DNA from: a virus
Taxonomy: Duplodnaviria > Heunggongvirae > Uroviricota > Caudoviricetes
Length of the DNA: 37,557 nt
Direction: 5' to 3' (one strand)
Virus record (IMG/VR): IMGVR_UViG_2588253749_000008
The notes under the pieces were generated by a model, which saw nothing but the letters and a program-made list of their open reading frames with translations, made no database searches and had not been told where the DNA came from. Both the position numbers and the translations under genes were made by a program. Shown one piece after another: positions 997 to 24,346 of this stretch. Position 1 is the first letter of the stretch; every line of letters starts with the position of its first letter.

Positions 997-1055
997 TACG
1001 TATCCTTATACCTGAAATCTTCGCAAGTATGCCTGGCCGCGAGATTATGGCACAC

Positions 1056-1064
1056 TTGTCCGGT
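1056..1064. repeat. IS1 target-site duplication, left copy (TTGTCCGGT)
   Basis: Identical 9-mer directly abuts both IS1 ends. Confidence 0.85.
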
Positions 1065-1119
1065 GGTGATGCTGCCAACTTACTGATTTAGTGTATGATG
1101 GTGTTTTTGAGGTGCTCCA

Positions 1120-1395
1120 GTGGCTTCTGTTTCTATCAGCTGTCCCTCCTGTTCAGCTACTGACGGGGTGGTGCGTAACGGCAAAAGCACCGCCGGACAT
1201 CAGCGCTATCTCTGCTCTCACTGCCGTAAAACATGGCAACTGCAGTTCACTTACACCGCTTCTCAACCCGGTACGCACCAGAAAATCATTGATATGGCCA
1301 TGAATGGCGTTGGATGCCGGGCAACTGCCCGCATTATGGGCGTTGGCCTCAACACGATTTTACGTCACTTAAAAAACTCAGGCCGCAGTCGGTAA
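1120..1395 (+). CDS. insA: IS1 InsA
   Basis: 91-aa product [39 protein letters not shown]..., GTG start. Confidence 0.9.
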
Positions 1396-1817
1396 CCTCG
1401 CGCATACAGCCGGGCAGTGACGTCATCGTCTGCGCGGAAATGGACGAACAGTGGGGCTATGTCGGGGCTAAATCGCGCCAGCGCTGGCTGTTTTACGCGT
1501 ATGACAGGCTCCGGAAGACGGTTGTTGCGCACGTATTCGGTGAACGCACGATGGCGACGCTGGGGCGTCTTATGAGCCTGCTGTCACCCTTTGACGTGGT
1601 GATATGGATGACGGATGGCTGGCCGCTGTATGAATCCCGCCTGAAGGGAAAGCTGCACGTAATCAGCAAGCGATATACGCAGCGAATTGAGCGGCATAAC
1701 CTGAATCTGAGGCAGCACCTGGCACGGCTGGGACGGAAGTCGCTGTCGTTCTCAAAATCGGTGGAGCTGCATGACAAAGTCATCGGGCATTATCTGAACA
1801 TAAAACACTATCAATAA
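1314..1817 (+). CDS. insB: IS1 InsB reading frame (transposase made as InsAB' fusion by -1 frameshift)
   Basis: 167-aa ORF overlapping insA in the -1 frame, canonical IS1 arrangement. Confidence 0.9.
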
Positions 1818-1832
1818 GTTGGAGTCATTACC

Positions 1833-1841
1833 TTGTCCGGT
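1833..1841. repeat. IS1 target-site duplication, right copy (TTGTCCGGT)
   Basis: Identical to 1056-1064. Confidence 0.85.
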
Positions 1842-1970
1842 TAACTCTCGTCTCATACAGGTAACACAAACGTGAAAATCCTTGTTGATGAAAAAAATGA
1901 TGATTTAATTTATTGATATAAAAGGATTTATATCAGCACGTGTCCACGTAGTGACCACATTTTCGAGTTA

Positions 1971-2012
1971 CAGATAACACAAAGCCCGTTTTCACGGGCT
2001 TTGTGTTATCTG
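1971..2012. repeat. Perfect 19-bp-stem palindrome (CAGATAACACAAAGCCCGT tttc ACGGGCTTTGTGTTATCTG)
   Basis: Exact inverted repeat read from sequence, just downstream of the 2040-2933 gene; no clear U-tract on either strand, so terminator versus protein-binding site is undecided. Confidence 0.5.
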
Positions 2013-2039
2013 GATTGTGGCTAAGCCACATGATTTATG

Positions 2040-2933
2040 CTATTTCCAGTTACAAGCAGCTTGAAGTGGTTTTAGCGCGTTTGACAGGCCGTTTAAATTG
2101 AAAGTTGCACTTACAGGGCTCTCATTATAAGGAGTTATTTTTGTATACATTTTGTTTGAGTTGGCTAGTTTTCGGATGAAATCAATGTCATTACCTTTAT
2201 AAAAAACAGCCTTTGTATCTGTAGATACTAGCCAGTTTCGCTCAACTGCTTTCTGTTTATCAAGACGATAAAGCATGCTGGTTTGTTCAAGGCCTAAATA
2301 TACATCCCAACTAAGAAATACTTCGGTTTTCTTTTCTCGGCAAGCTATAAACAGAGTGGGAGTAACCGCTTCTCCAAATGGAGTTCTGATATAATCATCA
2401 CTTTCTAACGATAAAATTACATTTTTCGAATCATCAATTGGCGATGTAGTAATGGATGTGTGCCATTTTCCTACATCTGTGGCTTTCTCTAATTTTGATT
2501 CAGCTTGAACAGCTTTATCCTGTGGGAATAGTTTATCGTAGCAGTTTAGTCTGGCTTCTTTATCATTTTCTGCTCGGCATTTAGATATCTCAGAAAGATT
2601 TGGTTGCTGAGCCTCTGTTGTTACTGGCTTTTCCGTTTTAGATTTTGAGTTTACAGATGGAGTAAATGTTGGAGAAAAAAAACGATCATAACAAGATAAA
2701 CGTCTGTCATCATCTTTCTCATCAGGGCATTGATCTCTGCTTTCGAATTTTTCAGCAACTTTCGTTCGAGTCGGTTGTATTGACTTATCGTAACAAGAAA
2801 GTCTGTCTTTATTATTTTCTATTGCTCGGCACTGGAGTACTGCATTGAAGTTATTATGTTCAGTTGCTGCGTGAACAGGCAGTACACTAATTGATATAAA
2901 TGATGCACCTATAGAAAAAATTATATTTTTCAT
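2040..2933 (-). CDS. Secreted/periplasmic protein with three Cys-x8-9-RL(S/N)CYD(K/R) repeats and a ~150-aa C-terminal domain of unknown function
   Basis: 297-aa ORF; N-terminal signal-peptide-like segment MKNIIFSIGASFISISVLPVHA; three spaced two-Cys repeats; visibly GC-poor. Confidence 0.6.
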   Translation of the reverse strand: MKNIIFSIGASFISISVLPVHAATEHNNFNAVLQCRAIENNKDRLSCYDKSIQPTRTKVAEKFESRDQCPDEKDDDRRLSCYDRFFSPTFTPSVNSKSKTEKPVTTEAQQPNLSEISKCRAENDKEARLNCYDKLFPQDKAVQAESKLEKATDVGKWHTSITTSPIDDSKNVILSLESDDYIRTPFGEAVTPTLFIACREKKTEVFLSWDVYLGLEQTSMLYRLDKQKAVERNWLVSTDTKAVFYKGNDIDFIRKLANSNKMYTKITPYNESPVSATFNLNGLSNALKPLQAACNWK

Positions 2934-2937
2934 TTTG

Positions 2938-3270
2938 TTATCCTTTTGGTTTAGTAAGAAATACTAAAATTCCGATAATGATATCGCCAATAACCCATAA
3001 ACTTCCAATGGTAATTAAACCTAAGCCTGTACCAATAACTGCACCGGCTTTTTCGGCATCGGATGTAGCATTATTTATTATTTCACTAGTGCCTCCCAGT
3101 CCAACTAAAAGCGTATAGATCATAAAAATATTAAATAATATAAATATCCACTTAATGAGCTTTCCAAAAAATGAACGCTTAAGTTTTTTTATTTGTTTAC
3201 CGCAAGCAGGGCAATACAATGCTGAATCGCTCACCTCTTTCTGGCATTCAGGACATTTGATTAATGCCAT
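2938..3270 (-). CDS. Zinc-ribbon membrane protein (N-terminal CPxC...CPxC, two predicted TM helices)
   Basis: 110-aa ORF MALIKCPECQK...CPACGKQ followed by two hydrophobic stretches; GGAGG RBS; stop lies 5 nt before the start of 2040-2933 (operon). Confidence 0.6.
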   Translation of the reverse strand: MALIKCPECQKEVSDSALYCPACGKQIKKLKRSFFGKLIKWIFILFNIFMIYTLLVGLGGTSEIINNATSDAEKAGAVIGTGLGLITIGSLWVIGDIIIGILVFLTKPKG

Positions 3271-3531
3271 GTAATCCGCCTCCTTTGGATCAATACGAGT
3301 TGATATTTGTTACAAAACATTTTGATTTTATCAGATTTTTTTTTATTGATAAGTGTCAATTGATTAGCTGGTATAGAGTGAGACATATAGAAGGGCAGAT
3401 CTGTATCAGTAGTGATGCAAAAATCCCACAGTTTCATGGAATTTTTGCATTTAGAGCCGTGAGATAGGGTGCCTTATCGACCTTACCCTGGCAACCGATT
3501 GACGGGGGATTACTCCCCCGTCGCGGTTTCC

Positions 3532-3672
3532 TTACTGCTTACACTGTAAGAACGCCGCAAACTCCGCTCCCCAGAAACTCATCCGTATTTCGCACAGCGA
3601 ACCGTGCAACATCCAGATGATGAGGATTACCGTCACGCAGAACGTGATGGCTGTAAGCGATTTTTGCGACAT
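3532..3672 (-). CDS. Hok/Gef-family type I toxin (small membrane peptide)
   Basis: 46-aa ORF not in the supplied track: MSQKSLTAITFCVTVILIIWMLHGSLCEIRMSFWGAEFAAFLQCKQ; shares the SLCEIR and E-x-AAF motifs of Hok/HokA-type toxins; stable 3' stem-loop GACGGGGGAttacTCCCCCGTC at 3501-3522. Confidence 0.65.
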   Translation of the reverse strand: MSQKSLTAITFCVTVILIIWMLHGSLCEIRMSFWGAEFAAFLQCKQ

Positions 3673-3862
3673 AGCACTTGCTCCTTTTCCGGAGAGGCGC
3701 TAACCTTTCACTTGCTTAGGGTAGACGGTTAGGGCCTCGGTTAAACAAAAGTGTTTTCCGGGGCCTTTCCACATCTGGCCTTCGGGTATTCCCTCCGACC
3801 ATCAGCCGAAAGGCACCCGCGCGTAATCTATCGCTTTTTTGTTACTCCGGCAATTCTGCTTG

Positions 3863-4123
3863 TTAATTCTGAGGTAAAGGCAAACTCATCTGATTGTTTC
3901 CCCTGTGTGAAGCTGGTAGCTCATGCCACGGGATACCTTCTGAAGAGTGAACGCCGGAGGCGTGTTTCGATGTGAATTTATGGAAAGCTTCCAGTGTTGA
4001 GAAGCATACGCCGCATTCCAGATTGTTACACTGGTAATACTTTTGCCGCACGGTGTTTGAATCATTTTCCGGACGACTTGTGCGGATACGGGCAGATGCG
4101 CCACAAAGCGGACAACGGAACAT
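3863..4123 (-). CDS. ogr: Ogr/Delta-type zinc-finger late-gene activator
   Basis: MFRCPLCGASARIRTSR...YYQCNNLECGVCF matches the Ogr CPLC...QC..C zinc finger; ORF is 86 aa versus about 72 aa for P2 Ogr. Confidence 0.8.
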   Translation of the reverse strand: MFRCPLCGASARIRTSRPENDSNTVRQKYYQCNNLECGVCFSTLEAFHKFTSKHASGVHSSEGIPWHELPASHRGNNQMSLPLPQN

Positions 4124-4314
4124 AGCGACCTCCCTTAACGTGGTGTTGCCGCTATTCTAGATTGTACGATCCCTAATTCCAACTAACAGCTCGCTCTGTG
4201 CGAAGAGTGAAAATTGAACTTTCAATAGTTGTTGAACTTCCATACATCCAATGTGAAAATTCATACGTTCATAATAGTTAAAATTTAAAATATTGTATAT
4301 CAGGTGAATAAAGC

Positions 4315-5337
4315 ATGGGAAGAGATATAACGCTGTACCCTAAAAAAGCAACTAGAAACGAACTTAAAAATTACCTTGAAAATTTAGGTTTTAAAAGGTG
4401 TAAACATTTGTGGGAATGGCCCCAAGGAACGTTGAATTACTCTTGGTTTGATGATACGGACTTCAAATCTACAGATGGAGTTTCGGCTGATATATATCCT
4501 GTTTCAAATGACGAATTACACATATCTGGTAATAAATGGGCATTGCATGTGCGTAATTTATATAGCGCTAGTTGGCATGATGTAAAAATGCTTAATGATG
4601 TTCTAAAAGGCGCAAGGAGTCTTTTTGGTGGAACACTTATAGGTGATTATGGGAAAAATAGGTACGCTCCTCTATGGAAGGATTCTAGTAGTCCGATCAG
4701 TCGTGGCATTTCTTCAATATTTAATCATGTCCATCATGAGATTTCCGCTGTTAAACATGCCTTACCTGAACCTTCTATTAAATTAAACCTACCGGAAGAT
4801 GGCGGCTTATCCGAATACTTTGATTACATGCAATGTATGGATCCCAGTAGAGTTATATATAATGGATTAGTACCTTTTGCGGTTGCTATGTTTGAATACT
4901 TTTTCTCTAGAGCTTTTCAAATACTTATAAAGTACGATCCTTTCGCAATAGCAAAAAGAACATCGTATAAGCAAAAAGTTGATTTTGATATTCTGCTTGA
5001 GATAGAGAAAGGAAATATTTCAATAGAAAGTGTTATTGCAAGAAATTACACTTTTCAAAACTTAACCCACCTAAACAAAGCATATAAAGAGTGGCTGGAT
5101 ATAGATGTGAGAGCGATTCTTTATAAGAAAAAAAGAATTGGAAAATCAGTTGATTTTCTTGAGAATCGAATTTCTGAAATCATACAATATAGACATGGGA
5201 TAGTTCATCACTTTGAGTTGGATAGGACCTTAAATCGGGATGGATATATTCATATATTAGATGCGATAGAAAAAAGCATAATTGAATTTATCCATTACAT
5301 AGAAGGCAAATACAAATTTAAATTAAATGCGTATTAA
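4315..5337 (+). CDS. Orphan GC-poor cargo gene, 340 aa; C-terminal alpha-helical region with an R-x4-H (YRHGIVHH) HEPN-like motif; candidate defence/abortive-infection protein
   Basis: Intact ORF opposite in orientation to flanking ogr and D; AGGTGA RBS; visibly AT-rich against the prophage backbone; followed by a hairpin at 5366-5389. HEPN assignment is motif-level inference only. Confidence 0.55.
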   Translation: MGRDITLYPKKATRNELKNYLENLGFKRCKHLWEWPQGTLNYSWFDDTDFKSTDGVSADIYPVSNDELHISGNKWALHVRNLYSASWHDVKMLNDVLKGARSLFGGTLIGDYGKNRYAPLWKDSSSPISRGISSIFNHVHHEISAVKHALPEPSIKLNLPEDGGLSEYFDYMQCMDPSRVIYNGLVPFAVAMFEYFFSRAFQILIKYDPFAIAKRTSYKQKVDFDILLEIEKGNISIESVIARNYTFQNLTHLNKAYKEWLDIDVRAILYKKKRIGKSVDFLENRISEIIQYRHGIVHHFELDRTLNRDGYIHILDAIEKSIIEFIHYIEGKYKFKLNAY

Positions 5338-5365
5338 GCAATCAACCTTACATAGGGATGACAAA

Positions 5366-5402
5366 GTCCGCTTCTGACACGGAGCGGACCGTCGTTTATG
5401 TT
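5366..5402 (+). terminator. Putative terminator of the cargo gene (GTCCGCT...AGCGGAC hairpin)
   Basis: Inverted repeat then a weak T-rich tract (CGTCGTTTATGTTT). Confidence 0.4.
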
Positions 5403-5457
5403 TAATTCTATACTGTAAACTTGCCAGTTTAAGTTTGAGCTAATATGTCTAAGTTGC

Positions 5458-6568
5458 TCACTCTGTTTCTGCTATCCATTCCGGGATTTTTGCCTCAAGC
5501 TCAAGCTGTGTGGTAAAGCCGCTGTTATCAATGGTGTGCTCGGCTTTCGCAATAATCCAGTCCTGATTATCAATCTCGCTTTTAAATCCTGTTACCGTGC
5601 CATGCATTTCGGGGTAGAGTTTCTGCACGTCCACGCACCAGCGTGATGGAAAACGATGCGGCTCCGCGTTGTAGCTGCTGCCACTTTGCCGCCGCTGCGC
5701 GTCTTGCTGCCTGCTCGTTCTGATAAGTCTTGCGTAACACAAACACATTGCCTTCCGCGCCTTCCATATAATCACCTTCACGGCTGCTGCTTTTCTCCTT
5801 TTTGGGTTTTGGCGGTTTGCGGCGTTTCACGCTGACTTTTTTCTTTTTCCCGTAATTAAGATCAAGCCAGTAAGCGCGTACCCCCGTATACGCCTCGCGG
5901 TCAGCAATGCGGAACTGATGGCGATCGCCGCTGCTGCGTGTGATGGCGAACGATGGCAACGGCTGGCCCTGTGCGTTTACGCCACCGCCGGGCATGATGA
6001 ATAACAGATTACCGCTTTTTACCGTGGTGATTGCGCCCAGCATTTCCGCCATGCGCGTAAGGAAGGACATGTCGCTTTCTTCAGTCTGGTCGGCGTGGTC
6101 GATTTCGATATCCATCAGCATTTCGCTGATTTGCGGTTTCAGGCCGTACCGATGAGCGATGGCGGATACCACACGTTCAACGGTCACATCATGCCAGGAC
6201 GCCTCACGTTTAACATTAAATTCATCCCGAAAATCTGCGCTTCTGGCTGAAACAGTCAGCCTGTCCGGCGGTCCTTCGTGAGCGATTTCATCAACAATGT
6301 AAGTGCCTTTTTCTGTCAGCGGTTCCCCTTTCCAGCCAATGAGAACCGTCAGACGCGCGCCCCGTGGCGGTAGCTGCAACTGGCCATCGGCATCATCCAG
6401 CGTGATGGTGAGCTGGTCCGCCTCAAATCCCCGGTTGTCGGTCAGTGACAGGCTCATCAGGCGTTCTGCCACGCCGGACAGCGTTTTACCCTCGGCGAGA
6501 ATATCAAAATCCGGCATTTTCACGGGGTCTGTGCCCTGACTGAGCAATTGCATGGTGGTGTCGGTCAT
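5458..6568 (-). pseudogene. D: P2 gpD-like tail protein, interrupted by an apparent +1-nt frameshift near 5625-5640
   Basis: N-terminal 329 codons in one frame (ORF 5582-6700, start reassigned to ATG at 6568 with GGGAGGGAG RBS); conserved C-terminal 45 residues (HGTVTGFKSEID...GFTTQLELEAK) in the overlapping ORF 5458-5781; junction at GCAGAAACTCTACCCCGAAATG. Confidence 0.7.
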
Positions 6569-6621
6569 CTGCTCCCTCCCTGTGTGGCATGGTCGCATGT
6601 GCGTGCGGAGGGGGTTACTGC

Positions 6622-6656
6622 TTTTTGTTGTCGCCGTGGCGGGAGAATGGCGCAGG
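6622..6656 (+). promoter_or_regulatory. Candidate Ogr-dependent late promoter upstream of FI
   Basis: CTTTTTGTTGT-N12-AGAA...CAGGGG, the same motif pattern as upstream of P at 24258-24292; resembles the P2 late-promoter TGT-N12-ACA element (from memory). Confidence 0.3.
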
Positions 6657-6725
6657 GGTGAGATTACGCGCGTGGTGGGTGATGATTGTTGCCGAATCAT
6701 TTAACGGATACAAGGGGCTGAAGCT

Positions 6726-7910
6726 ATGAGTGAAACTCGTTTTCATGGTGCCCGTGTTACGGAAAATACCGACCTGGTAACAGCGATTAACGATGTTGAT
6801 TCCAGCGTTATCGGTATCGTGGCAACGGCGGATGATGCGGACGCGAAGCTGTTCCCGCTGAACAAGCCCACACTGCTGACCCGCGTCAATGACGTGCTGG
6901 GAAAATGCGGGACAACGGGGACGCTTTATCGTGCGCTTAAGGCCATCGCAGACCAGGTGAGCACAAAGGTGATCGTCGTTCGCGTGGCTGAACACAAAGA
7001 AGAAGACGGAAAGACGCAGGATCAACTGGTTATCGGTGGTTCTGAGGATGACGGCAGCTATACGGGGATGTATGCGCTGCTTGTTGCAGAGCAGGATGAA
7101 AGCATCGGATACCGTCCGCGTATTCTGGCCGCGCCGGAGCTGGACACGGAGGCTGTAACAAAATCCCTGTGCGTGATTGCAGGTAAACTGCGCGCGTTTG
7201 TGTATGCCTCATGTCACGGCTGTAACACGATGGCTGAGGCGATTACCTACCGCCAGAAATTCAACGAACGTGAGGTGATGCTCTTATGGCCGGACTTCAT
7301 CGCCTACAACCCGAAAAGTGGCAAAAACGAAACGTTCCCCGCGCCTGCCTATGCGTGCGGCCTTCGTGCGTACATTGACCATGAGCAGGGATGGCACAAA
7401 TCACTGTCCAACGTTCCGGTTAAAAATGTGCTGGGGATGTCGAGGCATGTGTTCTGGTCGTTACAGGCCGAAGACAGTGATGCCAACAGCCTCAACAACA
7501 AAGAAATCACGACCATTATTCGTCGCAACGGGTTCCGCTTCTGGGGCAACCGCACACCGGAAACGAACGCCTACATCTTTGAGGTGTATACCCGAACCGC
7601 ACAGGTGCTGGCTGATTCAATTGCGGAAGCGCAGTTTGAAACCATCGACAGTCCACTGACGCCTGCGAACGTGAAGGATGTTATCAGTGCCATCAGGGCA
7701 AAACTGGATTCACTGGTTACTGCCGGGAAACTGATTGGCGCGGAGTGCTGGTATGACGTGGTGGATAACAGCACCACGGATTTACGTCAGGGGCGTGTGC
7801 GTATTCGCTACAAATATACGCCCGTTCCGCCACTGGAAGACATGGAGCTTTACCAGACGTTTACTGATGAATACTTTGAACCCGCATTTGCGGTTCTGGG
7901 AGGTGCCTGA
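6726..7910 (+). CDS. FI: Tail sheath protein (gpFI)
   Basis: 394 aa; long blocks match P2 FI as recalled (LNKP, RAF.Y...GC.T, WPDF, DQEQGWHK.LSNV, IRR.GFRFWGNRT, YTRTAQV, YTPVPPLE). Confidence 0.9.
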   Translation: MSETRFHGARVTENTDLVTAINDVDSSVIGIVATADDADAKLFPLNKPTLLTRVNDVLGKCGTTGTLYRALKAIADQVSTKVIVVRVAEHKEEDGKTQDQLVIGGSEDDGSYTGMYALLVAEQDESIGYRPRILAAPELDTEAVTKSLCVIAGKLRAFVYASCHGCNTMAEAITYRQKFNEREVMLLWPDFIAYNPKSGKNETFPAPAYACGLRAYIDHEQGWHKSLSNVPVKNVLGMSRHVFWSLQAEDSDANSLNNKEITTIIRRNGFRFWGNRTPETNAYIFEVYTRTAQVLADSIAEAQFETIDSPLTPANVKDVISAIRAKLDSLVTAGKLIGAECWYDVVDNSTTDLRQGRVRIRYKYTPVPPLEDMELYQTFTDEYFEPAFAVLGGA

Positions 7911-8422
7911 TGGCTGTGCCAAAACATCTTCGCTTTTTTACGCTGTTTGTGGATGGTGAAAACGAAGTGGGTAAGGTGACGTCCGTCACTCTGCCCAAAC
8001 TGACGCGCAAAACCGACAGCTACCGGGGTGGTGGCATGATGGGGGCGGTAAGTATTGATCTCGGTCTGGACGACTCTGCGCTTGATGCGAGCTTTGTCAT
8101 GGGGGGCGCAGTTCGTGCGCTGTTCCTTAAGTATGGCGGCACGATTGACGGCACGCTGCTGCGTTTTGCGGGTGAATACTACACCGATGCAGAAAGCGAC
8201 CTGTATGAAGTCGAAATGCGCGGACGTGTGACGGAAATTGATATGGGGGAAGCCAAACAGGGCGAAGCCACATCACACACTTACGCCATTAAAAACACCT
8301 ACTACAAGCTGAGTGTTAACGATCGCCCGTTGTGGGAGATTGACCTGCTGAACTTCATTTACCGGAAGGACGGCAAGGACATTGTGTCCGATCGCATCCG
8401 TTCCGCGCTTGGGCTTGGCTGA
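7910..8422 (+). CDS. FII: Tail tube protein (gpFII)
   Basis: 170 aa, immediately after FI; size and position match P2 FII. Confidence 0.85.
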   Translation: MAVPKHLRFFTLFVDGENEVGKVTSVTLPKLTRKTDSYRGGGMMGAVSIDLGLDDSALDASFVMGGAVRALFLKYGGTIDGTLLRFAGEYYTDAESDLYEVEMRGRVTEIDMGEAKQGEATSHTYAIKNTYYKLSVNDRPLWEIDLLNFIYRKDGKDIVSDRIRSALGLG

Positions 8423-8476
8423 TAAGTAATATGCAGGCGGCGCAGTGCGTCGCCTCTGACTGAAAGGAGTTTCCTG

Positions 8477-8842
8477 ATGAAAGAGACGAAAAACATCGAT
8501 ACCGAAAACACGGTAGTTACTGACACTGTGAAAGAAACCAGTGAGCGTGGCGTAAAACTTACCCAACCAATTGAGCGAGGCGGCGAAAAAATCACGTATG
8601 TGGAGATCACCGGGGCTATTGAGCAGGCTGGATCTCTGCGAGATTTGTCGCTGTCTGATGTGCTGAATCTGAAAGCGGAATCCATGTTTACGCTGCTGTC
8701 ACGCGTGACATCACCGCGACTGGATGAAGTGACGATCAAAAAAATGGCATCCCGTGACTTTATTCAGTTATGTGTGGTTGCCGTAAATTTTTTGAGCGGT
8801 GCGGACTCTGGCGGGAAGAACGAACAGGCGACGGAAGCCTGA
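8477..8842 (+). CDS. E: Tail assembly chaperone gpE (zero-frame product)
   Basis: Position between FII and T; contains the T-TTT-TTG slippery heptamer at 8788-8794. Confidence 0.75.
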   Translation: MKETKNIDTENTVVTDTVKETSERGVKLTQPIERGGEKITYVEITGAIEQAGSLRDLSLSDVLNLKAESMFTLLSRVTSPRLDEVTIKKMASRDFIQLCVVAVNFLSGADSGGKNEQATEA

Positions 8843-9006
8843 TCACGGTTGTGTGCTTTGAGCACATAGAAGACTTTGTGGCAGATATTGCCGTTATTTT
8901 TAACTGGTCGCCCGCCGAAATCTTCATGATGACGCCCGGCGAAGTGGTTAGCTGGCGTGAGCGGGCGGCACTTCGCAGCGGGAATGCAGACAATGAAGAC
9001 TCTTGA
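8477..9006 (+). CDS. gpE+E' fusion made by programmed -1 frameshift at TTTTTTG (8788-8794)
   Basis: The -1 frame after the heptamer continues ERCGLWREERTGDG...FNWSPAEIFMMTPGEVVSWRERAALRSG to a stop at 9006; analogous to P2 E/E' and lambda G/GT. Confidence 0.7.
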
Positions 9007-11800
9007 TATCCGGGTCGCTTTCAGCGCCGTTGACAGGCTGACCCGGCCTGCCGAAAACGCCCGCCGCCTGATGGGGCAGTTTGGTGACTCCATCCAGCGA
9101 ACGCAGGGGGCGATCAAAAATCTCGAGCGTCAGGCGCGATCATTTGAGCGCGCCCGCGACGCTGTCAGTAAAGCGGATGCTGGCATATTGAAAGCACGAC
9201 GCCAGCTTAACGCCCTTAATCAGTTACAACGCACGGGTACAGTGCTCAGCGAAAAACAACAAAAGCTGATGCAGCAGTTAAGCACCCGGCTTGAACACCT
9301 GAATGAATCGCGCACACGTGAAATTCAGAAAATGCGGGAGCTTGGCGGAGAGCTGAAACGCCACGGCATTTCCCTGACAGGCAGCGATAACACCATCCAG
9401 CAGGCCATCAGACGCACCGAACAGTACAACAACCAGCTTGAACGCGAACGGCAGGCGCTTGCGCGTGTAACGCGGGCGCGTGAGCGGTATTCGCGCGCGC
9501 AGGAAACTGCGGGAAAACTGAAAACAGGTGGTGCGCTGGCAATTGGTGCGGCAGCGGCTGGCGGCTATGCTGCCGGGCGTTTTTTGCAGCCTGCGATCGG
9601 GTTCGGGAAAGAGATGTCCCGCGTTCAGGCACTGACGCGAATCGACAAAAACAGCCCGCAGTTTAAGGCGCTGCGTGAGCAGGCGTTAAAACTTGGCTCT
9701 GAAACACAGTTTACTGCGAGTGATGCCGCCAGTGGGCAGAGCTTTCTGGCAATGGCTGGTTTTACTCCGCAGGCCATTCAGGCCGCATTGCCCGGTGTTC
9801 TTAATATGGCGCTGGCAGGTGGCGTCGAACTCGGCGAGACGGCTGATATAGGCTCCAATATCCTCACACAATTCAACCTGACAGCCGATCAAATGGACCG
9901 TGTTGGCGATACGCTGACAGCAGCATTCACCCGGACCAATACTGATTTACGCGCGCTGGGCGAAACCATGAAGTATACCGGTCCGGTTGCCGCAAAACTT
10001 GGTATCAGTCTTGAAGAAGCGGCAGCCATGGCCGGGATGCTTGCCAATAATGGTCTTCGTGGAAGCGATGCTGGTACAGCCATGCGCGCAAGTCTGTCCC
10101 GCCTTGCATCACCGCCAAAAGCTGCGGCTGATGCGCTGAAAGAGCTGGGGGTGTCAGTTGCTGACGCCAGAGGCAAAATGCGCCCGATGGAGGATGTGCT
10201 GCTTGATCTCTATAAGGCGACACAAAAATACGGACAGGTGGACCAGGTCTCCTTCTTCAAGGACATCGCCGGAGAAGAGGCGTTCGTTGGTTTGCAGACG
10301 CTTGTTGCGGCGGCTGGTTCAGGAGAGCTGCAAAAACTGACCAGAGAATTGCAGGGGGCAAGGGGAGAGGCCGATCGCGTTGCAAAAGTAATGGCCGATA
10401 ATCTTGATGGGGACCTGAAAAATCTCGACAGCGCATGGGAAGGTCTTCGTATTCGCATCAGTGATCTGGTTGACGGTCCGCTGCGTTCTGTCACGCAGTG
10501 GCTCACGCGGGTGCTTGAAAAAATCACCTCGCTGGCGCAGGCCCATCCGGTACTGACGCGCCAGCTACTGATAGCAGGCGGTGCGTTGCTGGCAATGACT
10601 GCAACGGTTGGCTCGTTGTCGCTGGCTATTGGTGTGCTTGCTGGCCCGCTGGCAAAACTGCGTCTTGGCTTTTCCCTCCTGACCGGTTCAATGAATGCTG
10701 TCAGACTCCTGCCAGCACTATGGGGAATGGTGACGGGTTCCGTTTCGTTACTGGGGGGCGCTATCGGGGCGTTGTTCAGTCCGGTCGGTCTTATCGTGGC
10801 TGCGCTTGCCGGAGCTGCCGTTCTCATCTGGAAATACTGGGATCCCATCAGGGCATTTTTTGCCGGGGTGTTCAGCGGGATTATGGAAAGGCTGACCCCG
10901 TTGCGCGAAACCTTTGAACGGTTTGGTCCTGTTTTTGACGCAATCGGAAGCGGGATCAGCCAGGTGTTTAACTGGTTTAAATCGCTGTTGTCACCGATGG
11001 AGTCCAGCAAGGAAACGCTGGATAAATGTACCAGTGCTGGCGAGATATTCGGTAACGTTCTTGGCGGTGCGTTACAACTTGTTCTGACACCTGCAAAAAT
11101 GCTACTGGATACGCTGGCGTGGATACTTGAAAAACTTGGCGTCCTTCCGGATGAAGCGGAAAGGGCGCGCAAGAAAATCGAAGACGCACAGCGTGAGGCC
11201 ATTCTTCAGGACAAGGTTGCCTTGCTTCAGGGGGACCTGGCGAAAATCAATCCGCCGAAGCCTGTGGAAAATGGCAATGGCACCGGAGGTGATAACCCCA
11301 AAGACAATAAACCGCTCACAGACAGCAATACCGGTACGCTGCGCAGACTCAGCAAAATTGCTGATAACACAGGTAAGCTGGTTGAGGAGACGAAAAAACG
11401 CATTGGCCCCGGCGATATTGTCTTTAAGAACCTGCCCCGAGCACTTGCTGTTCGTGGGGAGTGGCAGGAGCGGAAGATTGCGCAGGTCAGTAAGCCTGCC
11501 CCCGCAATTAATATCACACCCGTGGTCTCGGCTCCGCTGCCTCCGGCGCTGGTCCCTGTTGTTGCGGCCAGCTCCCGCCCGGTGGCGGAGGCTATACGAT
11601 CTCCAGTGGCATCAGTTCCTGTAACTTCCCGTAACCGGGAGCCTGTTGCCTCCGGATTTGGTGGTGAAATTCATGTTCATCTGCATAACGTTGTTACGCA
11701 GAATCCCCGCGAACTGGCGAAACTGGTCGGTGAAATGGTCAGGGCAGAAATGGAACGGCGCGCCCGTGCCGGGCGTGGCAGTTTTTACGATAAAGATTGA
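8984..11800 (+). CDS. T: Tail tape-measure protein (gpT)
   Basis: About 940 aa, coiled-coil-rich N-terminus, Gly/Ala-rich hydrophobic middle, located between E' and U; start set at ATG 8984 (MQTMKTLDI). Confidence 0.85.
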   Translation: MQTMKTLDIRVAFSAVDRLTRPAENARRLMGQFGDSIQRTQGAIKNLERQARSFERARDAVSKADAGILKARRQLNALNQLQRTGTVLSEKQQKLMQQLSTRLEHLNESRTREIQKMRELGGELKRHGISLTGSDNTIQQAIRRTEQYNNQLERERQALARVTRARERYSRAQETAGKLKTGGALAIGAAAAGGYAAGRFLQPAIGFGKEMSRVQALTRIDKNSPQFKALREQALKLGSETQFTASDAASGQSFLAMAGFTPQAIQAALPGVLNMALAGGVELGETADIGSNILTQFNLTADQMDRVGDTLTAAFTRTNTDLRALGETMKYTGPVAAKLGISLEEAAAMAGMLANNGLRGSDAGTAMRASLSRLASPPKAAADALKELGVSVADARGKMRPMEDVLLDLYKATQKYGQVDQVSFFKDIAGEEAFVGLQTLVAAAGSGELQKLTRELQGARGEADRVAKVMADNLDGDLKNLDSAWEGLRIRISDLVDGPLRSVTQWLTRVLEKITSLAQAHPVLTRQLLIAGGALLAMTATVGSLSLAIGVLAGPLAKLRLGFSLLTGSMNAVRLLPALWGMVTGSVSLLGGAIGALFSPVGLIVAALAGAAVLIWKYWDPIRAFFAGVFSGIMERLTPLRETFERFGPVFDAIGSGISQVFNWFKSLLSPMESSKETLDKCTSAGEIFGNVLGGALQLVLTPAKMLLDTLAWILEKLGVLPDEAERARKKIEDAQREAILQDKVALLQGDLAKINPPKPVENGNGTGGDNPKDNKPLTDSNTGTLRRLSKIADNTGKLVEETKKRIGPGDIVFKNLPRALAVRGEWQERKIAQVSKPAPAINITPVVSAPLPPALVPVVAASSRPVAEAIRSPVASVPVTSRNREPVASGFGGEIHVHLHNVVTQNPRELAKLVGEMVRAEMERRARAGRGSFYDKD

Positions 11801-11806
11801 GGAGTC

Positions 11807-12301
11807 ATGGCCATGATGATGATCTACGGCATGTTTGTTTTTGAGCTGCGCACGCTGCCGCATCAGCAGTTACAGCAAAACAAAAGCTGGCGGCATGTGA
11901 AAAATGAACGCGTTAACCGTTCAGCAAGCTGGCAGTATATCGGTGCAGGTGATGATCGCATCGTTCTTTCTGGTGTGCTTTATCCTGAAATTACAGGTGG
12001 CGAAGTGTCGCTGTCGCTGCTGACCACGCAGGCGTATACAGGACGACCCTGGCCTTTGATTGATGGCGTCGGGCAGATTTACGGCATGTATGTCCTGACC
12101 GGAACGAATACGACCCGTTCCGAGTTTGATCGCTACGGTAAGGCGAAAAAGATAGAATTTTCACTGACCCTTGAACGCTGTGATGAGGATTTGCGGGAGC
12201 GCCTGCAATCCTCATCGTTCAGCGATATGCTGTCCGGCTTCAAAGATAAAGTGACATCATCTCTTAACAGCGCGGTCAGTTCAGTTAAAGGGCTGTTCTG
12301 A
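11807..12301 (+). CDS. U: Tail protein gpU
   Basis: 164 aa immediately after T; size and position match P2 U. Confidence 0.8.
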   Translation: MAMMMIYGMFVFELRTLPHQQLQQNKSWRHVKNERVNRSASWQYIGAGDDRIVLSGVLYPEITGGEVSLSLLTTQAYTGRPWPLIDGVGQIYGMYVLTGTNTTRSEFDRYGKAKKIEFSLTLERCDEDLRERLQSSSFSDMLSGFKDKVTSSLNSAVSSVKGLF

Positions 12302-12312
12302 TTTAACACAAA

Positions 12313-12346
12313 AACCGCTAATGACCAGATTAGCGGTTATTTTGTT
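12313..12346. terminator. Bidirectional rho-independent terminator between U and the invertase gene
   Basis: AACCGCTAAT gaccag ATTAGCGGTT flanked by T-runs on both strands; overlaps the invertase stop codon. Confidence 0.55.
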
Positions 12347-12930
12347 TCCTGACTCTTCTCAATTGTTCCGCTTGATTCTCCTGCGGGGTGGTAACGATAA
12401 ATCGTCGATATACCAATGCCGTAAATTATTGCCAGTTGTTTTCTGTCGTGCCCGTTTTTGATCAGCCTTGCTATTTGCTCATGCTGTTCTTTTGTCAGCT
12501 TCGGGCGACGTCCGCCTGTGCGCCCTCGTGCGCGCGCTGCAGCCAGTCCGGCCAGTGTACGTTCAACAATTAATTCACGTTCCATTTCAGCCAGGGCACC
12601 CATCACGTGGAAGAAAAAACGCCCCATTGGAGAAGATGTATCTATGCTGTCGGTCAGACTGCGAAAATTAATCCCTCGCTCCCGTAGTTCCCCGACGAGA
12701 GAAATCAGATGTTTCATGCTTCGCCCGAGGCGATCCAGTTTCCAGACAACCAGCGTGTCGCCTTTTTGAAGGCGCTTTAAAGCGCGTTTTAATCCCGGTC
12801 GGTCTGTCTTTGTCCCGCTTAATTTATCTTCAAATATTTGTTCGCATCCTGCACAAACAAGAGCGTTTCGTTGCAGGTCTGTATTCTGGTCATTTGTTGA
12901 TACGCGAACATAGCCAATAAGCATGATCAT
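12337..12930 (-). CDS. Serine recombinase, DNA invertase (Hin/Gin/Cin/Pin family)
   Basis: 197 aa; N-terminal GYVRVSTNDQ catalytic-serine motif, C-terminal HTH; sits beside the invertible tail-fibre segment. Confidence 0.9.
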   Translation of the reverse strand: MIMLIGYVRVSTNDQNTDLQRNALVCAGCEQIFEDKLSGTKTDRPGLKRALKRLQKGDTLVVWKLDRLGRSMKHLISLVGELRERGINFRSLTDSIDTSSPMGRFFFHVMGALAEMERELIVERTLAGLAAARARGRTGGRRPKLTKEQHEQIARLIKNGHDRKQLAIIYGIGISTIYRYHPAGESSGTIEKSQETK

Positions 12931-12979
12931 CCCCCTGAATAAAAACCGGGGATGATGCCAGTTAGCTGTTACCTCTGCA

Positions 12980-13005
12980 TTTTCTTAAACGTTGGTTTGG
13001 GAGAA
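12980..13005. other. gix/hix-like crossover site A (TTTTCTTAAACG TT GGTTTGGGAGAA)
   Basis: 26-bp imperfect palindrome matching the 12+2+12 invertase-site pattern TTnTCnnAAACC as recalled; inverted relative to site B. Confidence 0.6.
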
Positions 13006-13449
13006 GGTGCTCCAGCTATTGGCGTTCCGTTCTTCTGGCCCTCCGCGGCAATGCCAAATACTGTAATCGACAGCTGGTCCGGTATGGTGTTTTTGAAGTT
13101 CAACGGGGCGAAATTTTCTGCCTCTGATTACCCTGTGCTGGCGAAAGTGTTTCCTTCGCTGGTATTACCTGAAGCCCGCGGTGATTTCATTCGTATCTGG
13201 GATGACGGGCGAGGTGCAGACGGTGGTCGCGAATTATTAAGCTGGCAGGCAGCTACAAACTTTTCTCAGTTTGCCGGGAATATAGGCGAAGGTGCGGGAC
13301 ACGCAATTAACTTTCATGATGGCATCGCCGGAAATCAGCCAGGATTTTCACGATTTAATTTCACCAGTAACTCTGTGGGTGATGGTGTGAATTTTGTTGC
13401 TGTCAGACCGCGAAATATTGCATTTAACTTTCTGGTGAGGGCTAAATAA
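12994..13449 (+). CDS. Silent alternative tail-fibre C-terminal cassette (Sv'-like)
   Basis: Begins at the crossover with LGEGAPAIG, mirroring LGLGEAAK at the crossover inside H; would fuse in frame to the H constant region after inversion. Confidence 0.6.
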   Translation, partial: GLGEGAPAIGVPFFWPSAAMPNTVIDSWSGMVFLKFNGAKFSASDYPVLAKVFPSLVLPEARGDFIRIWDDGRGADGGRELLSWQAATNFSQFAGNIGEGAGHAINFHDGIAGNQPGFSRFNFTSNSVGDGVNFVAVRPRNIAFNFLVRAK

Positions 13450-14042
13450 TGAAACCTGTTTTTGATGAAAATGGGCTGGCTACAGTGCCGGGCGATATGC
13501 GTTGTTTTTATTATGATGCTGAAACATCTGAGTATACGGGCTGGTCTGATGAATATATTAATACTGGCGTAAGTATGCCCGCCTGTTCCACTGGTATTGA
13601 CCCTGGCGAAAACATTCCGGGAAGAGTGGCAGTATTTACAGGTAAGGGATGGAGCCATGAAGAAGACCATCGCAATGAGACTGTTTACTCAATCGAAAAT
13701 GGTGCTGCTGTTACAGTGGATTATATCGGTGCCATCAAAAACGGTTATGTCACGCTTTCACCGTTAACGCCATATGATAAATGGGATGGTGAGAAATGGG
13801 TGACAGATACTAAGGCACAACACGGTGCCGCAGTAGAAGCGGCAGAAGCACAGCGCCAGTCACTGATTGATGCTGCAATGGCTTCCATCAGCCTGATTCA
13901 GCTGAAATTACAGGCCGGGCGGAAGCTGACGCAGGCAGAAACCACCCGGCTTAACGCCGTGCTTGATTACATTGACGCGGTGACGGCAACAGATACGAGC
14001 ACCGCGCCGGATGTCATCTGGCCTGAACTGCCGGAGGCGTAG
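13449..14042 (+). CDS. Tail-fibre assembly protein, alternative copy (Tfa')
   Basis: 197 aa; C-terminal motif DTSTAPDVIWPELPEA parallels the other Tfa copy. Confidence 0.75.
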   Translation: MKPVFDENGLATVPGDMRCFYYDAETSEYTGWSDEYINTGVSMPACSTGIDPGENIPGRVAVFTGKGWSHEEDHRNETVYSIENGAAVTVDYIGAIKNGYVTLSPLTPYDKWDGEKWVTDTKAQHGAAVEAAEAQRQSLIDAAMASISLIQLKLQAGRKLTQAETTRLNAVLDYIDAVTATDTSTAPDVIWPELPEA

Positions 14043-14454
14043 GCCATTCAATATCTGGCGCACCGGAAGTATCGACCAGTTCCAGTGCGTCCAGATAATC
14101 CAGCCACAAATTATATTGCACCAGTTCCTCACCTTTCAGGCGACCAATCGCCGCTTTACCAGGCCATTGCTTACTGTTTATGTATTCGTTGACCTGATTA
14201 ATCAATTGCTGCTTTTCCAGTTCGGCTGCGGCAATTTGTTCCTCATGAGTTGGCGGTGGAATATCAATCCATGCAGGCATTCCGTCGATGACACCTCTGT
14301 ATTTTCCTTCTGGTGCTTCCTTCATAAATTCGGCGGCAACAGTGTCGTCAATTTCGATTCCATCACCGGGCCATTCGCCGGATTCCTGATAAGCGATTTT
14401 AAGCTCCACAGGGAAAAACGCATTTTTATCGGCACTGAAAATATATTTCTGCAT
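14014..14454 (-). CDS. Tail-fibre assembly protein (gpG/Tfa, currently expressed orientation)
   Basis: 146 aa directly downstream of H; C-terminal DTSGAPDIEWPTPP. Confidence 0.8.
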   Translation of the reverse strand: MQKYIFSADKNAFFPVELKIAYQESGEWPGDGIEIDDTVAAEFMKEAPEGKYRGVIDGMPAWIDIPPPTHEEQIAAAELEKQQLINQVNEYINSKQWPGKAAIGRLKGEELVQYNLWLDYLDALELVDTSGAPDIEWPTPPAVQAR

Positions 14455-14456
14455 TT

Positions 14457-15863
14457 CTACCGTCCTATCGAAATATAACTGAATCTGTATTGCTGTGAGA
14501 TATCACTGGTTGCCACACGCCACGCTGAATTACTGATATGTTCAAAATTTACAGACAAAACCTGCGGGGCAGGATTCGACGGGTCTGACTGAACGGCATC
14601 AGACATAACACTGACTGAAATCATCGGCTGATTAGGGAATGGTATAGGGAAGTGTCCACTGATAAAGCGGGTCGTGTTTCCTGAAAAAGTGCCAAACTGA
14701 ACAATATATCCACCTGGTAGCCTGAACCATCCCGAACCAGAAGCGAATGCTCCCATATCCGGTATCTGATTATCTCCTGTGCCCACATCCCTTTTCGCCG
14801 CTTCTCCTAAACCAAGGTATGCGAGAAGACCAGCAACATCCTTTCCACTCAAATTAGTCAGCGTATTGTCCAGCGGTTGTTTGTCTGCCAGTGCATTAAG
14901 CACTGTTGTTGAAAAGTTAGGGTCATTCCCCAGCGCCGCCGCCAGTTCATTCAGTGTATCCAGTGCCGCAGGGGCAGAACCCACCATTGCCGCAATTGCT
15001 GATTTCACAAAAGCTGTGGTGGCAATCTGTGTATTGTTGACCGACTGTGCCGCAGTAGGTGCTGTTGGCGTTCCGGTAAGTGCCGGACTCGATAGCGGCG
15101 CTTTCAGTGCCAGCGCATTGTTAATGGTGGTGCTGAATTTCGGGTCATTGTTAATGGCTGCGGCAATTTCTTTCAGTGTGTCCAGCGTGGCTGGCGCACC
15201 GTTAATCAGATCGGTAATAGCGGCCTGAACAAACTCAGTGGTCGCAATCCGCGTGGTGTTATTTCCTGCGGCAGGCGTCGGCGCTTTTGGTTCTCCGGTA
15301 AATGTCGGATTATGTTTCTGCGCATACTGGGTATGAGGATCCTGTGCGGCAATGTGGTTTCTCATCTGGTCATCCACATACAGCTTTAATTCCAGGACTT
15401 TATCATCCACGTATTTACGGGTCGCCAGTACCACCGACGGGTCGATTTTCAGCGTGATGGCTTCGGTGTTCGTGACAACCAGAATCATGCGGATAGTCTG
15501 GGTGCGTCCACTGCCTTCCTGCAACTGCGGTTTGTACGTTTCCGGGCAGTTTGCCACCGCAATGAGTACACCTTCATCATCATAAAGACCAATCTCACGG
15601 ATCCAGAATCCTCCCTCGTTTTCAGGGATGATTTGCTCAGCAATAATCTGGCTCTGATTGTTAGGGTCAACACTCAGAAGATTCAGCGGTGCAATGCGTT
15701 TCTGGTTAATCAGTTTTGTTTGTGCAGGGTCTGGTGTTGGTAACACACCATTTGCATCACCAACGGCCATTTGCGTCAGATTCAGCTTACTGCCGAGCAT
15801 CGTCGCGTTAGCCAGTCGTGCCGCGCCCTGATTAGTCAGAATGGCGTAGTATTTCACTGTCAT
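14457..15863 (-). CDS. H: Tail fibre protein (gpH): constant N-terminal part plus invertible C-terminal part
   Basis: 468 aa; conserved tail-fibre N-terminus MTVKYYAILTNQGAARLANA; crossover site B lies inside the gene. Confidence 0.9.
   Translation of the reverse strand: MTVKYYAILTNQGAARLANATMLGSKLNLTQMAVGDANGVLPTPDPAQTKLINQKRIAPLNLLSVDPNNQSQIIAEQIIPENEGGFWIREIGLYDDEGVLIAVANCPETYKPQLQEGSGRTQTIRMILVVTNTEAITLKIDPSVVLATRKYVDDKVLELKLYVDDQMRNHIAAQDPHTQYAQKHNPTFTGEPKAPTPAAGNNTTRIATTEFVQAAITDLINGAPATLDTLKEIAAAINNDPKFSTTINNALALKAPLSSPALTGTPTAPTAAQSVNNTQIATTAFVKSAIAAMVGSAPAALDTLNELAAALGNDPNFSTTVLNALADKQPLDNTLTNLSGKDVAGLLAYLGLGEAAKRDVGTGDNQIPDMGAFASGSGWFRLPGGYIVQFGTFSGNTTRFISGHFPIPFPNQPMISVSVMSDAVQSDPSNPAPQVLSVNFEHISNSAWRVATSDISQQYRFSYISIGR
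14802..14827. other. gix/hix-like crossover site B (TTCTCCTAAACC AA GGTATGCGAGAA)
   Basis: Inverted partner of site A, inside H. Confidence 0.6.
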
Positions 15864-24192: not shown

Positions 24193-24257
24193 AGTTTTTG
24201 CCCCTCTGACTGGTTCTTCAGTCATGATGGCAAAGCGTAACAGGCTGATACAAAGGG

Positions 24258-24292
24258 CTTTTGTTGTAAGAAAACGGCCAGAACAGGGGGTT
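24258..24292 (+). promoter_or_regulatory. Candidate Ogr-dependent late promoter for P-Q
   Basis: CTTTTGTTGT-N12-AGAA..GGGGG, same pattern as upstream of FI; in the divergent O/P intergenic region. Confidence 0.3.
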
Positions 24293-24346
24293 AAGGAGAA
24301 CAGTTTCGCGCGCGGGTAATCTTCCTGTAATTACTCAGGGGGAGCA

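Follow-up and report, generated by a model that had tools for sequence, protein, structure and literature searches.

The inverted tail-gene block of a P2-like prophage: an order that is normal and long fixed in a large group of P2-like enteric phages

Genes and features of the tail block

The window, which is the whole stretch of DNA that was analysed (37,557 nucleotides of a Caudoviricetes virus, IMG/VR record IMGVR_UViG_2588253749_000008), carries a contractile-tail module of the P2-like (Peduoviridae) type, in which the genes FI, FII, E/E′, T, U and D and an Ogr-type activator gene are all present (Table 1). When P2 proteins were compared with the window using tblastn, 25 of 29 were matched, and relative orientation was kept by all but FI, FII, E, T and U, with D and ogr among the homologues that retain it. 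The five exceptions are inverted with respect to P2 and fill positions 6726–12301 of the plus strand. The P2 reference gene order, in which FI to D and ogr are colinear with O...H, was confirmed from the AF063097 annotation and is not found here, as the FI–U strand is opposite to that of O...H, D and ogr. Strands and gene identities, assessed using Pfam and tblastn, are as given in the original prediction, which had been made from the sequence before any database search.

Seven tail genes are common to the window and the P2 F operon (pF-FI-FII-E/E′-T-U-D, then ogr; AF063097), with 32–48% amino-acid identity overall, and the two also share the E/E′ −1 frameshift signal and the position of the activator site upstream of FI. 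In P2 the seven genes form one unit on the late-gene strand and U overlaps D, whereas in the window the inversion of FI–U leaves D as a divergent unit by itself, whose N-terminus is new and which has a Shine-Dalgarno sequence of its own. The frameshift signal TTTTTTG is found at 8788–8794, and frame analysis revealed that the −1 frame is open from 8758 to 9006; a programmed −1 frameshift from E into E′, upstream of T, is predicted on this basis. The start of T at 8993 was adopted from the annotations of phages 500465-2 and P88.

At the far end of the block, the stop codon of U ends at 12301 and that of the Gin/Hin-family invertase gene occupies 12337–12339, such that the two genes lie tail to tail around a hairpin. 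Folding of 12296–12352 gave a ΔG of −16.1 kcal/mol (z = −4.4), and the hairpin is terminator-like on both strands, in keeping with the earlier description of U and the invertase as meeting at a bidirectional terminator. Cargo open reading frames (ORFs) gave no PADLOC matches.

Table 1. Coordinates of the features at and around the inverted tail block
Feature	Position	Strand	Evidence
ogr-type late activator gene (86 aa)	3863..4123	−	Pfam Ogr_Delta, E = 5e-14; 41.5% identical to P2 Ogr
Gene D, baseplate hub / gpD homologue	5458..6568	−	Pfam Phage_GPD; 49% identical to P2 gpD from residue 19
Divergent D/FI control region (157 bp), proposed bidirectional Ogr-dependent late promoter	6569..6725		Spacer alignment, geometry, P2 precedent
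Predicted D promoter, extended −10 TGcGACCAT (minus strand)	6589..6597	−	Offset conservation
Ogr-type dyad GTTGT-N12-AGAAT	6627..6648		TGT-N12-AGA at 6629–6646, centre 6637.5
Predicted FI promoter, −10 hexamer GATGAT	6681..6686	+	Positional inference from P2 geometry
FI, tail sheath	6726..7910	+	Pfam Phage_sheath_1, Gp18_domIII_N, Phage_sheath_1C; 46% identical to P2 FI
FII, tail tube	7910..8422	+	Pfam Phage_tube, E = 6e-47
E	8477..8842	+	No Pfam match of its own; 32% identical to P2 E
E′ ORF, −1 frameshift extension of E	8851..9006	+	Pfam Phage_P2_GpE
T, tape measure protein	8993..11800 (ORF 8957–11800)	+	Pfam PhageMin_Tail, E = 2e-56
U, tail protein, last gene in inverted block	11807..12301	+	Pfam Phage_P2_GpU, E = 1.5e-38
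Hairpin between convergent U and invertase	12313..12338		10-bp stem; A-run and T-run flank; terminator-like on both strands
Gin/Hin-family serine invertase	12337..12930	−	Pfam Resolvase and HTH_7
Invertase substrate, 1.8-kb tail-fibre segment	12980..14827		gix-like sites at 12980–13005 and 14802–14827

Distribution and age of the arrangement

Over 5400–13000 the window aligns in one colinear piece with Escherichia phage 500465-2 (NC_049343, Gemsvirus; about 100% identity) and with P88 (NC_026014, Xuanwuvirus; 95.1% identity). Both phages have ogr, D, FI–U, the invertase and the tail-fibre segment in the order and on the strands seen in the window, together with a 157-bp D/FI spacer; identity, colinearity and the divergent D/FI pair at ~157 bp all place the window in the P88 / 500465-2 lineage (Xuanwuvirus / Gemsvirus tail module). 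The differences are these: the 1.8-kb tail-fibre segment of 500465-2 is flipped relative to the window, D of the window has a private 1-bp insertion, and a low-GC gene between D and ogr is found in the window and 500465-2 but not in P88.

The same layout has been recorded far beyond these two phages. The whole block is carried by 13 phage records, colinear at both junctions; an intact D/FI junction was detected in 1357 of 5426 complete E. coli genomes; and D and FI are head to head in every one of 80 IMG/VR loci, with a gap of 156–157 bp. Across about 20 Enterobacterales genera the divergent layout was found in all 43 informative genome loci (D 64–98% identical), and ogr shares the strand of D in all informative related loci. 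Phages with the orientation of the window include P88, 500465-2, P884B11, phiSM, PhiR44_2, Chuche and SEN5, among others. D and FI are also divergent in Salmonella phage SEN5 (Senquatrovirus), Serratia phage KSP20 and Klebsiella phages Kp4848-1 and Kp4871-3 (prophage-derived), where D is 63–71% and FI 56–71% identical; SEN5 has no invertase beside U, and its U converges on the tail-fibre assembly gene G.

The flipped block is real, and a large group of enteric P2-like phages has it as the normal order, fixed long ago; the arrangement is already present in public genomes. Three readings had been offered originally, namely a genuine inversion, a lineage-specific arrangement and a mis-assembly; the evidence favours the second, in the form of an old inversion fixed throughout a clade. 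The block had been treated as an anomaly unless closely related complete phages should carry this orientation as their normal one, and they do. About one in four complete E. coli genomes contains this very common prophage lineage, for which the seemingly inverted order is the standard one, and it therefore calls for no warning of an assembly fault or a rearrangement. The gene order of the P2 F operon is not invariant.

A mis-assembly, in which the assembler would have turned the 5.6-kb block the wrong way round, is an abstract possibility of almost no weight, even though the private 1-bp insertion in D means that the window is either not error-free or not wild type. It is excluded because the D/FI junction recurs in the 1357 complete E. 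coli genomes, and it is likewise found in the IMG/VR loci (80/80) and in 43 loci from other genera; both junctions recur, colinear, in 13 independent phage records.

It is extremely improbable that the inversion is recent or programmed, with the Gin-like invertase or some other recombinase flipping FI–U as a switch. The invertase gene looks active and adjoins the block, and its 1.8-kb tail-fibre substrate does occur in both orientations, since that of the window is opposite to the one in the 500465-2 record. The only two gix-like sites in the window (18–19/20 against the Gin/Cin/Hin consensus) flank this tail-fibre segment, at 12989–14818, and not the tail block. In a scan of the whole window with the gix/cix/hix consensus, the best score near the block junctions was 11/20, which is the level of chance (94 windows score 11), and the ends of FI–U have no inverted recombination sites (26 bp). 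A search of 5000–13200 for inverted repeats found none at the breakpoints, only weak pairs (70–77% complementary) and the U/invertase hairpin, so that the earlier remark that no clear inverted repeats mark the breakpoints stands, and extends to gix-like sites at the junctions. FI–U has one orientation in all relatives examined. Most clade members, SEN5 included, are without an invertase, which is present in only 8 of the 43 informative loci although the inverted block is present in all 43. Turning the block back would, in addition, part D from its start region. The known Gin/Cin/Hin segments (the G segment of Mu, the C segment of P1) provide a ready comparison: the 1.8-kb segment of the window is like them in having two gix-like sites and in being found in both orientations, whereas the 5.6-kb FI–U block has no such sites and has never been seen in the other orientation. 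The invertase lies outside the block and did not cause the inversion.

The polarity of the change can be read from more distant relatives. FI–U–D is colinear in the relatives whose D is at most 52% identical, namely Cartapus, P2, Klebsiella Kp4852-2, Salmonella SI22, Pseudomonas BR319a, Burkholderia FLC10 and Acidovorax Alfacinha1; Enterobacter Arya is a further colinear relative. The divergent state occurs only where D is at least 62% identical. Of the colinear relatives examined, Cartapus (Elveevirus) is the closest. It shares the gene set of the window, and its tail block is directly preceded by an invertible tail-fibre segment and a Gin-like invertase, but the order is invertase, FI ... 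U, D and ogr on a single strand, U and D overlap, and D is 52% identical. That the divergent order is ancestral and the colinear order of P2 derived is very unlikely: polarity is drawn here from outgroup distribution rather than a formal phylogeny, but all distant relatives sampled are colinear. The N-terminal ~18 amino acids of D, which are variable within the clade and have no homology to P2 gpD, fit a breakpoint at the U/D overlap.

A single old inversion of pF-FI-U, fixed in the clade, is highly likely, with D probably controlled through a shared Ogr site. The prophage in the window is P2-like (Peduoviridae) and of the P88 / 500465-2 type; in its ancestry the first five genes of the F operon and their promoter (pF-FI-FII-E/E′-T-U) would have been inverted once, long ago, leaving D and ogr on the strand of the remaining late genes, and the order is now fixed in the tail-module clade across many Enterobacterales genera. 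The clade includes induced or isolated phages, and the order is therefore a functional one and not a mis-assembly, a recent event or an invertase substrate.

The D/FI spacer and the expression of D

D needs a promoter of its own because the minus strand upstream of it holds nothing co-directional until the invertase gene and the hairpin terminator, past the 5.6-kb block. The original prediction was that the late-promoter motif had moved with FI, leaving D without an obvious promoter. The first part is upheld, in that the polarity of the dyad at 6629–6646 relative to FI is as in P2 pF; the second is not, given a conserved extended −10 at mirror distance from the dyad and the precedent of P2 pP and pO, which share one activator site.

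Alignment of 42 distinct spacers revealed the conserved blocks TCATGCGCGCGCG, TTGTTGT, GATTATCA and CGAACTCA, and a block on the D side, CGCGCGCG, is strongly conserved. The dyad is perfect (GTTGT-N12-ACAAC) in 13 of the 42 related spacers and imperfect in the window (TGT-N12-AGA, 8/10 on the extended motif), where matches of 8/10 quality are not enriched (13 observed, 14.8 expected). Exact TGT-N12-ACA has six matches in the window, fewer than expected by chance, and none in the late spacers; it was a search allowing one mismatch that located the late-spacer sites. Given this lack of enrichment, the dyad motif by itself is no evidence. Scanning for generic sigma-70 promoters gave no match within the D/FI spacer, which is expected for activator-dependent promoters yet offers no support either.

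Relative to the dyad centre (6637.5), the offsets that correspond to those of P2 are occupied by GATGAT towards FI and by TGcGACCAT towards D, with predicted starts at about 6693–6696 for FI (leader of about 30 nt) and about 6582 for D (leader of about 14 nt). In 41 distinct spacers that are otherwise only 39–57% identical to that of the window, an A2/T6 hexamer was found at offset 0 on the FI side in 40 (at most 7 at any other offset), and TG plus an A2/T6 hexamer at offset 0 on the D side in 38 (0–2 elsewhere from −8 to +8), although the related spacers share ancestry and part of this conservation is inheritance rather than constraint.

A known counterpart is P2 pP/pO (AF063097), where one annotated activator-binding site has mapped starts 55.5 bp either side of its centre. 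The D/FI spacer resembles it in having one dyad in ~150 bp and a predicted site centre near −55 in both directions; it differs in that the genes served would be FI and D, that the starts are predicted, and that the D side has a TGn extended −10 and CGCGCGCG. The P/O spacer of the window itself has the layout of P2 pP/pO, and shares with the D/FI spacer the element GCTTTT(T)GTTGT-N12-AGAA, here at 24263–24284; its P promoter consists of a like dyad, 34 nt, a CGCGCG-rich spacer and then a −10 element. That the D/FI spacer might be a duplicate of the P/O spacer was considered and rejected on reading both sequences: as the T-rich GTTGT arm faces O in one spacer and D in the other, while the CGCGCG block lies towards P and towards D, respectively, they are not colinear copies.

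Taken from position and conservation, a bidirectional promoter model can be proposed: the control site of the sheath gene probably also turns on D, acting from its other side. The 157-bp spacer would contain one dyad-symmetric site for an Ogr-type activator; FI–U would be read rightwards from the original pF, the transcript terminating at the hairpin common to the convergent invertase gene, and D would be read leftwards from the extended −10 that mirrors the FI −10 about this one dyad, the site centre falling near −55 both ways. The corresponding history, for which the balance of probability is slightly favourable, is that the old inversion split the F operon and that D was rescued by the other face of the symmetric Ogr site together with a new extended −10.

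Alternatively, D might not depend on the shared site at all, being expressed from an Ogr-independent promoter or as the low-level product of another transcript. Consistent with this, an extended −10 (TGn) promoter can act without an activator, the dyad of the window is imperfect and such matches are not enriched, and no role is assigned to the strongly conserved CGCGCGCG block of the D side. An exact mirror distance in 38 of 41 diverged spacers would be needless for an activator-independent promoter, though, and an annotated shared site exists at P2 pP/pO, whilst the window's own P promoter has a like succession of dyad, 34 nt, CGCGCG-rich spacer and −10. D is furthermore a virion component, required at late times in P2 as established biology. 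Independence of D from the shared site is on this evidence unlikely.

With the shared-site model preferred, D of this clade appears, judging by sequence, to use the other face of the activator site at pF for its expression, and the 157-bp spacer offers a compact natural test case for bidirectional activation by Ogr. If the model is true, it would be a natural case in which a symmetric activator site of the class-I type made up for the splitting of an operon, a rescue that was not found described for this widespread lineage: the literature searched, the papers on P88, SEN4/SEN5 and phiSM included, yielded no description or test of the divergent arrangement, and nothing relevant was found on P2 late-promoter dyads.

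Start and reading frame of D

The head-to-head placement of FI and D at a distance of 157 bp, as first proposed, is true provided that D starts at ATG 6568. This start is backed by a GGAGG Shine-Dalgarno sequence read from the sequence, by homology to P2 gpD that begins at residue 19, and by the annotation of P88, and the start codon is conserved across the clade. The longest ORF for D reaches 6700, 25 bp short of FI, and it is this upstream start that RefSeq uses for phage 500465-2; it is probably over-extended.

In the window itself D is broken by a 1-bp insertion, an extra T, near 5622. The frame is intact over 5582–6568, and the conserved C-terminal ~41 amino acids are out of frame; the extra base is private to the window and absent from all complete E. 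coli genomes.

In P88, as in many E. coli genomes, a small ‘hypothetical protein’ has been annotated across the D/FI spacer. Both this small ORF call and the call of D from the upstream ATG are probably spurious, and both overlap the likely promoter region.

Orientation of the tail genes and the start of D

The layout of the window was established from an ORF map, Pfam assignments and tblastn searches with P2 proteins (see table), with the P2 reference gene order verified in the AF063097 annotation. By tblastn the window corresponds to the P2 map read in reverse complement, with only FI, FII, E, T and U flipped and all other P2 homologues retaining their relative orientation; all three lines of evidence agree with the original prediction that the FI–U block is inverted relative to D and the rest of the P2 order. 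The E/E' −1 frameshift signal TTTTTTG was located in the sequence at 8788–8794, and a hairpin (12313–12338), terminator-like on either strand, lies between the convergent U and invertase genes (fold of 12296–12352: dG −16.1 kcal/mol, z = −4.4).

Coordinates of features in the window
Feature	Position	Strand	Remark
Q, P	24347–27144	+	
O through H	24192/24225 down to 14457	−	
Gin-like invertase	12337–12930	−	
U	11807–12301	+	
T	8993–11800	+	
E' extension	to 9006	+	
E	8477–8842	+	
FII	7910–8422	+	
FI	6726–7910	+	
D	to 6568	−	
ogr	3863–4123	−	
hok/mok-like toxin	~3530–3675		low-GC cargo; by comparison with the 500465-2 annotation
Zinc-ribbon protein	2938–3270		low-GC cargo
VasI/TagO-like protein	2040–2933		low-GC cargo

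The predicted head-to-head gap of 157 bp between D and FI is correct if D begins at 6568. This start is backed by D's own Shine–Dalgarno sequence (GGAGG), fits the P2 gpD homology, which starts at D residue 19, is the start in the P88 annotation and is kept in the clade alignment. The longest D ORF extends to 6700, and RefSeq takes that upstream ATG for D of phage 500465-2 (413 aa), which is probably over-extended; a small 'hypothetical protein' is also called over the spacer in P88 (33155–33286 of its record, L001) and in many E. coli RefSeq genomes. Each overlaps conserved promoter-like elements (window 6569–6700 and equivalents), and both are probably spurious calls.

Distribution and origin of the divergent order

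Over window 5400–13000, identity is ~100% to Escherichia phage 500465-2 (Gemsvirus) and 95% to phage P88 (Xuanwuvirus). The annotated genomes of both have identical strands, and the whole block is colinear with the window in 13 phage records. When an 801-bp query spanning the D/FI junction was searched against complete E. coli genomes, the junction was intact in 1357 of 5426, and in IMG/VR the best 80 of 492 D relatives all have divergent FI and D with a gap of 156–157 bp. Species-representative genomes yielded 47 loci from ~20 Enterobacterales genera (D identity 64–98%), 43 of which extend far enough to judge, and in every one of these FI-FII-E-T-U is opposite in strand to D, ogr and H/I/J. 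The same D/FI layout is found in Salmonella phage SEN5, in the Serratia phage KSP20 fragment and in Klebsiella phages with D and FI ~70% identical. All examined relatives with D at or below 52% identity have the colinear order: Cartapus, P2 (FI-U-D), Klebsiella Kp4852-2, Salmonella SI22, Pseudomonas BR319a, Burkholderia FLC10, Acidovorax Alfacinha1 and Enterobacter Arya.

The original interpretation is thus borne out in part: the suggestion of a lineage-specific arrangement was right, and mis-assembly and a recent inversion are both rejected. Mis-assembly is excluded because so many independent genomes share the junctions. The divergent order is also functional, since strains of E. coli are lysed by P88, itself obtained by chemical prophage induction, and the temperate phage phiSM is active (PMC6456863). 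It can already be seen in public records of classified phages (Xuanwuvirus, Gemsvirus, Senquatrovirus) and of KSP20; it passes without comment in the literature found on P88, SEN4/5 and phiSM, and a wider literature search found no description of it.

Comparison with P2 and with Cartapus, in which the invertase directly precedes FI, places the first breakpoint in the gap that separates the upstream gene (invertase or G) from the dyad of pF, the late promoter upstream of FI, and the second at the U/D overlap. The latter agrees with the first ~18 residues of D, which have no P2 gpD counterpart and vary within the clade. The simplest reading is a single old inversion of [pF-FI...U], since fixed in the clade. 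That the block is itself an invertase substrate was ruled out: no inverted repeats were found at its breakpoints, the best gix-like match near its ends in a whole-window consensus scan was 11/20 (chance level), and the invertase is missing from most clade members, being present in only eight of the 43 informative species-representative loci and absent from SEN5. The only two gix-like sites in the window, TTTTCTTAAACGTTGGTTTGGGAGAA and TTCTCCTAAACCAAGGTATGCGAGAA (12980–13005 and 14802–14827; 18–19 of 20 consensus positions), bound a 1.8-kb tail-fibre segment (12989–14818). This segment is flipped relative to the otherwise nearly identical 500465-2 record, so the lineage evidently has a working Gin-like switch.

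Two relatives differ in other ways. The close relative L106 (IMGVR_UViG_2654587728_000014, locus 1–6600) has a split tape-measure gene T, with residues 1–442 adjoining one invertase gene and residues 634–935 plus U, on the other strand, adjoining a second; the pattern resembles an assembly chimera or the product of a rearrangement that involved two P2-like prophages. In L049 (Trabulsiella odontotermitis, locus 1200–3100), H and I, beside an invertase, are in the reverse of their usual orientation, while FI–U and D are clade-typical. A further rearrangement, or an invertible region of larger size, may explain this.

A proposed two-way promoter for D and FI

D, on the minus strand, would need its own promoter, because, reading upstream past the 5.6-kb block, no gene runs in the same direction short of the invertase, which has a hairpin terminator. 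AF063097 annotates one activator-binding site common to the divergent P2 promoters pP and pO; by our reading of that record, the dyad centre (3071.5) lies 55.5 bp from each mapped start (3016 and 3127). The D/FI spacer holds GCTTTTTGTTGT-N12-AGAA (dyad 6629–6646, centre 6637.5), and the P/O spacer of the window holds GCTTTTGTTGT-N12-AGAA. At the P2 distance from the D/FI dyad there is a predicted −10 element, GATGAT (6681–6686), on the FI side, and at the same distance on the D side a predicted extended −10, TGcGACCAT (6589–6597, plus-strand coordinates); the predicted starts are ~6693 (FI) and ~6582 (D), with leaders of ~33 and ~14 nt. The single dyad would serve FI rightwards and D leftwards, as P2 pP and pO share one site, and we consider it somewhat more likely than not that the spacer is a bidirectional promoter with a shared activator site. 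This reading is put forward as a modest new hypothesis resting on the known pP/pO architecture.

Alignment of 42 distinct D/FI spacers revealed as conserved blocks TCATGCGCGCGCG (D side), a TTGTTGT arm, GATTATCA and CGAACTCA, and a perfect GTTGT-N12-ACAAC dyad in 13 of the 42. The window's own dyad is imperfect, and matches of such quality are not enriched in the window. In a register control with 41 spacers, each only 39–57% identical to that of the window, TG plus an A2/T6 hexamer occurred on the D side at offset 0 in 38 (0–2 at other offsets from −8 to +8), and an A2/T6 hexamer on the FI side at offset 0 in 40 (at most seven elsewhere), counts that are not independent of descent as the spacers share common ancestry. 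With a predicted extended −10 at the P2 distance, in register in 38/41 spacers, the view that D was left without an obvious promoter is not supported.

The window's P promoter is patterned like the D side: a dyad, 34 nt, a CGCGCG-rich spacer, then a −10 element. TCATGCGCGCGCG is the most conserved block of the spacer in the clade alignment; its window form, GCATGTGCGTGCGG (6594–6607), is placed between the D-side −10 and the dyad. In the P promoter of the window a similar CGCGCGCG run occupies the equivalent position, as does a GC-rich run in P2 pP. Within 24192–24346, the likely start of O is 24192, which the P88 annotation also uses, rather than the longer-ORF ATG at 24225 (P2 gpO homology from 24180), giving a P/O spacer of 154 bp with a single central dyad (24265–24282), flanked by TAATCT towards P and TGcCATCAT towards O, like P2 pP/pO.

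The extra T in D and neighbouring cargo

Relative to phage 500465-2, D carries one extra T (TTT versus TT, ~5620–5622), which throws its conserved last ~41 residues out of frame. The extra T was found in none of ~1130 complete E. coli genomes carrying this stretch (best match 99.6%); it reflects a sequencing error or else a private mutation that inactivates an essential tail gene.

A 340-aa ORF (4315–5337, plus strand) of low GC content (~0.38) separates D from ogr and runs opposite to both; it is absent from this place in P88, where ogr directly follows D. Its Pfam match to HEPN RiboL-PSP is weak and sub-threshold, and PADLOC gave no match. The ORF is a candidate for a cargo or a defence gene in a P2-type variable spot. 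Further along (window 1120–3700), an IS1 element (InsA/InsB ORFs 1120–1817) adjoins the low-GC cargo listed in the table.
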